Sequence record: DQ006822.1
Length of the DNA stretch: 624 nt
Strand: one strand, 5' to 3'
Source of the DNA: a phage
A program made the translations under genes and the position numbers. Below are positions 1-624 of the stretch, piece after piece; positions within the stretch are counted from its first letter, which is position 1, and the number at the start of each line of letters is the position of its first letter. The notes beneath the pieces were generated by a model. It had not been told where the DNA came from and made no database searches. It worked only from the letters and a program-made list of their open reading frames with translations.

Positions 1-21
1 TTACNCAGTATGAGAGGACAT
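1..21 (+). other. Partial 5' untranslated leader of an ssRNA phage genome (cDNA form) upstream of the maturation protein start
   Basis: Lies directly upstream of the A2-like start codon at 22-24 and resembles, by recollection, the end of the Qbeta 5' leader (...GAGGACAU-AUG). Contains an ambiguous base at position 5. No in-frame stop is visible upstream of the start within the window, so the UTR/CDS boundary relies on homology to the known A2 N-terminus (MPKL...). Confidence 0.6.
12..18 (+). promoter_or_regulatory. Shine-Dalgarno-like ribosome binding site (GAGAGGA) for the A2 start codon
   Basis: Purine-rich gagagga at 12-18, with the agga core ending 3 nt before the ATG at 22. Spacing is short but within functional range. 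The matching position in Qbeta is the known maturation gene initiation region. Confidence 0.5.
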
Positions 22-624
22 ATGCCTAAATTACCACGTGGTCTGCGTTTCGGAGCCGATAATGAAATTCTTAATGATTTTCAGGAGCTCTGGTTTCCAG
101 ATCTCTTTATCGAATCTTCTGACACGCATCCGTGGTACACACTGAAAGGTCGTGTGTTGAATGCCCATCTTGATGATCGCCTACCTAATGTAGGTGGTCG
201 TCAGGTTAGGCGTACTCCACATCGTGCTACTGTTCCGATTGCCTCTTCAGGCCTTCGTCCGGTAACAACCGTTCAGTATGATCCCACAGCACTATCGTTC
301 TTATTGAACGCTCGTGTTGATTGGGATTTCGGTAATGGCGACAGTGCGAACCTTGTCATTAATGACTTTTTGTTTCGTACTTTCGCACCTAAGGAGTTCG
401 ATTTCTCGAATTCCTTAGTTCCTCGTTATACTCAGGCCTTCTCCGCTTTTAATGCCAAGTATGGCACTATGATCGGTGAAGGGCTCGAGACTATAAAATA
501 TCTCGGGCTTTTACTGCGCAGACTGCGTGAGGGTTACCGCGCTGTTAAGCGTGGCGATTTACGTGCTCTTCGCAGGGTTATCCANTCCTACCATAAAGGN
601 AGNGGNAANCNGNTACTGCTGNNA
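22..624 (+). CDS. A2: Maturation (A2) protein of a Qbeta-like ssRNA phage, N-terminal ~200 codons, 3' partial; the frame over roughly the last 25 nt is unreliable because of N calls
   Basis: Uninterrupted ORF from ATG 22-24 to the window end. Translation: MPKLPRGLRFGADNEILNDFQELWFPDLFIESSDTHPWYTLKGRVLNAHLDDRLPNVGGRQVRRTPHRATVPIASSGLRPVTTVQYDPTALSFLLNARVDWDFGNGDSANLVINDFLFRTFAPKEFDFSNSLVPRYTQAFSAFNAKYGTMIGEGLETIKYLGLLLRRLREGYRAVKRGDLRALRRVI(Q/H)SYHKG..., which matches my recollection of Qbeta A2 almost residue for residue. Arg codons are 17 of 20 CGT/CGC, consistent with an E. coli-adapted coding frame. The full protein is ~420 aa, so the CDS continues past the window. Confidence 0.9.
   Translation, partial: MPKLPRGLRFGADNEILNDFQELWFPDLFIESSDTHPWYTLKGRVLNAHLDDRLPNVGGRQVRRTPHRATVPIASSGLRPVTTVQYDPTALSFLLNARVDWDFGNGDSANLVINDFLFRTFAPKEFDFSNSLVPRYTQAFSAFNAKYGTMIGEGLETIKYLGLLLRRLREGYRAVKRGDLRALRRVIXSYHKXXXXXXLLX

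Follow-up and report, generated by a model that had tools for sequence, protein, structure and literature searches.

Bacteriophage Qβ and its close relatives carry a single-copy maturation protein, A2, which binds both the genomic RNA and the F pilus (PMC10610835; PMC12856241). Attachment to the F pilus is attributed to the β-region, which is N-terminal and exposed, and the α-region holds the genomic RNA in the capsid (PMC10610835; PMC12856241). Qβ-type phages are without a separate lysis gene, and A2 also brings about lysis by inhibiting MurA, acting on the closed, UDP-GlcNAc-bound form (PMC10610835; PMC12856241). According to Cui et al. 2017, as cited in PMC12856241, A2 makes the majority of its MurA contacts through residues 30–120, and residues 1–180 are the shortest fragment that lyses cells. 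Expression of the maturation gene is subject to RNA-level control: a long-range RNA structure silencing the Qβ gene is stated in PMC2978339, and leviviruses as a rule translate their maturation gene from freshly synthesized strands (reviewed in PMC6071253). In the MS2-type phages of genogroup I long-range pairing likewise blocks the ribosome-binding site of the maturation gene, which becomes accessible on RNA that is new or has yet to fold (PMC6071253). The genogroup III field strain HL4-9, originally obtained from a hog lagoon, is commonly met in wastewater (PMC6963950).

The stretch analyzed here, referred to as the window, comprises the 624 nucleotides of sequence record DQ006822.1. An earlier note made from the letters alone had taken it to be a cDNA read of a Qβ-like RNA phage genome, covering the 5' leader and about the first 200 codons of the maturation gene. 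Below, this segment is compared with sequenced Qubevirus genomes, with the known structures of A2 and with the RNA-level control described for these phages.

Results

Searches of 50,697 phage records with megablast and blastn gave 37 matches, exclusively to Qubevirus genomes and each on the plus strand, in agreement with the proposed origin from a Qβ-like phage. Window positions 7–621 correspond to nt 46–661 of Qβ AB971354 in the genomic plus sense, ungapped except for one base dropped in the poor tail of the read, so that the near-identity to Qβ nt ~40–660 anticipated in the earlier note is borne out. The same positions match nt 47–662 of HL4-9 (FJ483841; megablast/blastn), with which the window is collinear from HL4-9 leader nt 47 onwards. 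Window position p corresponds to Qβ position p+39, and the whole window represents genome nt ~39–664 when two dropouts are allowed for. Past that point the genome plan is visible in the relatives only, with a coat gene, the read-through protein A1 and a replicase, no separate lysis gene and a length of ~4.2 kb.

Identities were computed over the reliable part of the read, window 7–583. Across this region ten Qβ-like genomes align without gaps at 93.4–98.3% identity, with HL4-9 the nearest at 98.3%, followed by TW18 (97.2%), FrSangria (96.5%), FrMerlot (95.2%), lab Qβ (95.0%), GIII_C (94.8%), BR12 (94.3%), VK (93.6%) and BZ1 (93.4%). M11 and MX1, the second genogroup III subgroup within Qubevirus durum, reach only ~62% with three gapped columns. 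HL4-9 was recovered as the sister of the window in 224 of 300 bootstraps of a neighbor-joining tree. The question of Qβ itself or a group III relative, which had been left to per-site identity, is thereby answered in favor of a Qβ-like field isolate. A single Qβ-like contig of 2,890 nt, present in both the IMG/VR and JGI metagenomes (IMGVR_UViG_3300019216_000421 = Ga0179939_1057709), is 93.6% identical in nucleotide sequence to the window and 97.2% identical to BR12 over the window-equivalent region, with a protein 92% identical. Neither the phage records nor these metagenomes contained a sequence identical to the window.

The quality of the read is uneven and confined in its defects to the two ends. 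At the start (1–6, plus strand, ~Qβ nt 39–45) the window has TTACNC where all Qβ-like genomes have TTCACTG, and in the alignment this amounts to one dropped base, one N and one mismatch. Ten N calls are present (positions 5, 585, 600, 603, 606, 609, 611, 613, 622 and 623), one among the first 5 bases and the other nine within the final 40; the earlier description of these calls as terminal stands, that of them as scattered does not. The low-quality tail (583–624, plus strand) contains nine of the ten Ns and has lost one base after 599, although its called bases agree with Qβ at 30–31 of 33. Owing to this dropout the A2 frame is lost after about codon 193, leaving ~187 reliable codons (22–582) and ~13 further codons of low quality. 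Between the two ends the read is essentially free of errors, and within 22–582 a single base, the synonymous T120, is private to the window. A good middle with poor ends bearing Ns and dropped bases is what an untrimmed single-pass read would give, as had been suggested.

HL4-9, as top match and sister in the tree, is a candidate for the source of the read itself, and the window could be FJ483841 with 10 differences in 577 nt attributable to read errors or quasispecies noise. Nine of the ten substitutions, however, are synonymous and at third codon positions, leaving I62V as the single amino-acid change in A2, and nine of the ten differing window bases also occur in other isolates, for example TW18 or FrMerlot. 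One hairpin accounts for four of the ten (180, 195, 205 and 207, inside it or at its edge), and there the window retains or gains pairing. A divergence of 1.7% with such a pattern corresponds to natural variation between isolates, and identity with HL4-9 is judged very unlikely. The window likely comes from a sibling isolate of HL4-9 obtained from a similar type of source.

Comparison with lab Qβ gave 29 substitutions over 7–583 and 28 over 22–582. Were the window lab Qβ itself, this difference of ~5% would have to be the error of a poor single-pass read, a view to which the Ns and the single base lost at either end lend some color, as does the difference of the A2 protein at only 2 of 187 residues. 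Yet 25 of the 28 differences within 22–582 are at third positions and 25 of the 27 changed codons are synonymous, whereas random errors would spread over codon positions; variant bases in this region were, with one exception, present in other field isolates, whereas errors would be private to the read; and HL4-9 is far nearer than lab Qβ. The codon-position pattern rules this explanation out, and the probability that we would still grant it is minute. The two amino-acid changes relative to lab Qβ, V69A and A89T, both fall within codons 30–120, and several further field isolates also have A69 and T89. The synonymous third-position pattern was the same for all nine Qβ-like comparators, with 80–90% of differences synonymous. 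Third-position synonymous variants shared with other isolates mark the window as a distinct natural isolate under purifying selection, and read errors in lab Qβ or in HL4-9 do not account for it.

Best matches to a bacterial or prophage DNA locus had been named beforehand as a finding that would contradict an RNA phage origin, and the rival view, with plasmids added, is that the window is a stretch of DNA with no more than a resemblance to an RNA phage gene. The letters are written with T and carry no RNA-derived mark, and a plasmid clone of Qβ cDNA would be DNA as well, although such a clone falls under the cDNA reading and is not a rival to it. No blastn match to the window was found in E. 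coli (20,395 records, 5,426 genomes) or in 72,556 plasmids, and no tblastn relative in GTDB, searched as one genome per species for 185,579 bacterial and archaeal species. Every match is to a single-stranded RNA phage genome and is collinear from the leader on. A scan of the window for promoters and terminators gave no promoter-like and one terminator-like site, both at chance, and open reading frames in the ORF listing, those of the minus strand included, do not exceed 45 aa since the A2 frame runs past the window end; promoters, terminators and minus-strand frames are thus as meaningless here as the earlier note had held. An origin in a DNA genome is exceedingly improbable. Membership of the M11/MX1 subgroup or of genogroup IV (SP/FI), phages that the earlier note had put forward for comparison and with which the Qβ-like phages share gene order and A2 family, is ruled out by identity, given ~62% to M11/MX1 over 7–583 and, in blastn with FI/BR8, detectable similarity in 120-nt patches only (71–72%), and can be given practically no weight at all.

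It is nearly certain from these comparisons that the window is an untrimmed single-pass cDNA or RT-PCR read whose template was genomic RNA, plus strand, from a field isolate in the Qβ-like cluster of genogroup III (Qubevirus durum). The RNA template is something the letters alone cannot show, and we infer it from the identity to RNA phage genomes without a known DNA stage. The lack of a DNA counterpart in the E. coli, plasmid and GTDB searches and the strong folding with covariation described below give it indirect support.

A weak tblastn match to A2 residues 56–118 (29% identity) was observed at 1001–1204 of a metagenome contig of 9,742 nt, SDBV01014924.1, with an E value of 4e-6 that refers solely to the candidate set. 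The contig exceeds the length of a levivirus genome, and the match is probably due to chance or to a very distant relative.

Three irregularities in public records were noted during these comparisons. RefSeq NC_001890.1 ('Escherichia phage Qbeta', 4215 nt) behaves in match coordinates, identity and length exactly as MX1 AF059242.1; both match the window at 78% over 188 nt only, compared with 94% over 99% for genuine Qβ records, and what RefSeq lists as 'Qβ' is apparently MX1. The A2 gene of NC_001890.1 is annotated as 'head maturation protease'. In LC710219.1 (Qβ GIII_C) the coat-gene coordinates 1335–1736 bear the gene name 'lys' and the remark 'lysis protein A2', and 'cp' is assigned to the read-through gene; since the A2 maturation gene occupies 52–1314, the label on the coat gene looks like a misannotation.

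The window begins in the last third of the 5' untranslated leader (1–21, plus strand, ~Qβ nt 39–60), and the 5'-terminal hairpin (genome nt 1 to ~27) and the first ~38 leader nucleotides fall outside it. The A2 AUG is at 22–24 on the plus strand, corresponding to annotated CDS starts at nt 61 (AB971354) and nt 62 (FJ483841), and translation from it begins MPKLPRGLRFGADNEILNDFQELWFPDLF and stays open to the window end. Leader and A2 are both present as previously claimed, but to the extent of 21 of 60 leader nucleotides and ~187 reliable codons rather than ~200. The A2 start of lab Qβ is the same as that of the window.

Codons 1–187 (22–582, plus strand) specify the N-terminal part of a protein that is 420 aa in full. 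The Pfam family PF03863 (Phage_mat-A) was matched with E 1e-34 and 120.6 bits against a cut-off of 25, residues 36–186 aligning with profile positions 20–201 of 446, and the N-terminal 45% of the protein is contained in the window. Residues 1–187 are identical at 185 of 187 positions to the Qβ A2 of PDB entries 5VLZ (chain EJ), 5VM7, 7LHD and 5MNT, of which 5VM7 is the complex with MurA. The expected similarity to levivirus maturation proteins is therefore present at the level of both family profile and solved structure. Counted from the ATG at 22, codons 30–120, in which most MurA contacts are located (PMC12856241 citing Cui et al. 2017), occupy 109–381, and codons 1–180, the shortest lytic fragment (PMC12856241 citing Cui et al. 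2017), occupy 22–561, both on the plus strand and the latter entirely within the window. The window thus encodes the whole lysis-competent part of A2, the activities themselves (MurA inhibition and lysis) being taken from the literature. V69A and A89T lie inside the MurA-contact stretch, yet are common among infectious field isolates.

The plus strand of 7–583 has a predicted folding energy of -233.6 kcal/mol, compared with -163.5 ± 6.1 kcal/mol for dinucleotide shuffles (z = -11.5); for the minus strand (complement) of the same region z is -8.5. To count covariation, the minimum free energy (MFE) structure of the window was projected onto an alignment of 13 genomes. Cells at paired positions were paired in 92.5% of cases, a percentage inflated by derivation of the structure from the window itself. 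Changes on both sides of a pair were seen in 30 of 212 pairs, against 8–11 when partners were slid by 1–3 columns and 11.3 ± 2.6 in shuffles, 0 of 500 of which reached the observed count; most of the double changes come from two divergent sequences only, M11 and MX1. These results support the view that RNA folding is meaningful in this segment, which had been put forward on first reading.

One predicted element is a long-distance helix that includes the A2 Shine-Dalgarno sequence. Its 5' arm (7–18, plus strand; AGUAUGAGAGGA) contains AGAGGA at 13–18 with the core GAGG at 14–17, and its 3' arm (420–432, plus strand; UCCUCGUUAUACU) lies in codons 133–137 (V-P-R-Y-T) and is predicted to sequester the Shine-Dalgarno sequence. 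In both the MFE structure and the ensemble, 7–13 pairs with 426–432 and 14–18 with 420–424, with pair probabilities of 0.75–1.0. When 5' fragments of Qβ and HL4-9 were folded, the helix was predicted at every length from 480 to 1400 nt (Qβ 46–57:459–471) with probability 1.0, so that lab Qβ has the same predicted pairing as the window, and was absent from fragments of 450 nt or less, where only short, shifting alternatives were found. Across the alignment 89.7% of cells in this window-derived helix are paired, and 3 of its 12 pairs are changed on both sides, in M11/MX1. At window 12, a polymorphic site close to the Shine-Dalgarno sequence, the window has G, as does HL4-9, converting an A-U pair of the predicted silencing helix to G-U.

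When the Shine-Dalgarno region was scanned against the downstream 900 nt with RNAduplex, the partner at ATG+397 ranked first in the window, HL4-9, Qβ, BR12, BZ1 and GIII_C. Other partners outranked it in this free scan for TW18, VK, FrSangria, FrMerlot, M11, MX1 and the group IV phages, and conservation of the helix beyond the Qβ-like cluster is therefore not claimed. FrSangria and FrMerlot carry T137N (ACU to AAC or AAU), aligned to 426–432, which breaks outer pairs of the Shine-Dalgarno helix; with this substitution the 3' arm is no longer the best duplex partner of the Shine-Dalgarno region in these two phages.

Two local hairpins are also predicted on the plus strand. The first, of 16 bp (169–205), consists of CUUGAUGAUCGCCUAC and GUAGGUGGUCGUCAGG around the loop CUAAU, and in four of its pairs both partners are changed, as in the replacement of CG by UA in four sequences. 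The window and HL4-9 exchange G-C and G-U at 179:195 and 180:194 of this hairpin, and C169:G205 is paired in the window whilst HL4-9 has C·A. The second is a perfect hairpin of 13 bp (389–418), formed by CUAAGGAGUUCGA and UCGAAUUCCUUAG around the loop UUUC and located directly 5' of the 3' arm of the long-distance helix. It is paired in 95.3% of cells, and 8 of its 13 pairs are invariant even in M11/MX1.

Between the Qβ-like phages and M11/MX1, 12 of the 16 codons in window 382–441 that are identical in amino acid are also identical in nucleotide sequence, although numbers are small; other 20-codon blocks are roughly 20–50% nucleotide-identical in most cases. This synonymous conservation suggests a constraint at the RNA level on the 389–418 hairpin and the Shine-Dalgarno-sequestering arm. 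M11 and MX1 retain most of the helices predicted in the window, several by way of compensatory changes, and share with it a strongly conserved block at ~382–500. They differ from the window in a leader shorter by 4–5 nt and in one extra codon at window ~300.

Rfam, searched at permissive thresholds, gave only two sub-threshold chance matches, and no curated RNA family covers the segment. The match to mir-2188 (24 bits, where the gathering score is 60) is caused by the 169–205 hairpin, and that to snoU13 (16 bits against 46) was likewise dismissed.

Discussion

The sequence is of an already known kind from a known virus: a near relative of a sequenced strain, encoding a protein of known structure under a known type of RNA-level control. 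The predicted Shine-Dalgarno helix agrees with the published long-range silencing of the Qβ maturation gene (PMC2978339) and with the nascent-strand rule (PMC6071253). In the proposed mechanism the RNA of the A2 segment would fold into a closed domain in which window 7–18 is paired to codons 133–137 (420–432). The A2 ribosome-binding site would be open until genome nt ~470 had been synthesized and paired, or transiently during refolding, and from the predicted sequestration it follows that ribosomes should find the site accessible chiefly on plus strands that are nascent or refolding. Sequestration of this kind would keep A2 output low and linked to replication. We consider it quite probable that in Qβ-type phages generally the A2 site is open only before nt ~470 pairs or during refolding and that this limits A2. 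The translational coupling that had also been invoked for this segment has no bearing on it, since RNA folding controls A2, which is the first cistron.

The arrangement predicted here differs in geometry from that of MS2, with which the window has no detectable sequence similarity. In the work of Groeneveld, Poot and van Duin the inhibitory partner in MS2 reportedly lies upstream, in the 5' UTR, whereas the partner predicted in the window is part of the A2 coding region, ~400 nt downstream.

The segment is the region used for subtyping genogroup III F-RNA coliphages in fecal source tracking. The span of the window, its single-pass quality and its kinship to HL4-9 would all fit sequencing of the 5' maturation gene from genogroup III field isolates for that purpose. 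The target region of Stewart et al. 2006 (AEM 72:1226) is said to have been the 5' maturation gene, in isolates from swine lagoons and surface water, and the partial genogroup III entries of that study would be a likely source of the window. For comparisons of this type the choice of reference matters, as one made against RefSeq only would wrongly point to a distant relative, NC_001890 behaving like MX1.

A more far-reaching proposal is that the isolate belongs to a distinct animal-waste-associated Qβ lineage of the HL4-9 type, in which substitutions in the MurA/pilus-binding face of A2 (A69, T89 and V62) together with G at window 12 measurably change how much A2 is made, when lysis occurs or how the pilus is bound. 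We regard this as speculative and very unlikely; if it were true, the 5' A2 segment would be a useful source-tracking marker with a functional basis.

Nothing in the window alters the known biology of Qβ. With the window known to be RNA-phage cDNA, signals of the DNA type can be ignored, and what is to be read in it is the structure of the RNA and the A2 frame.
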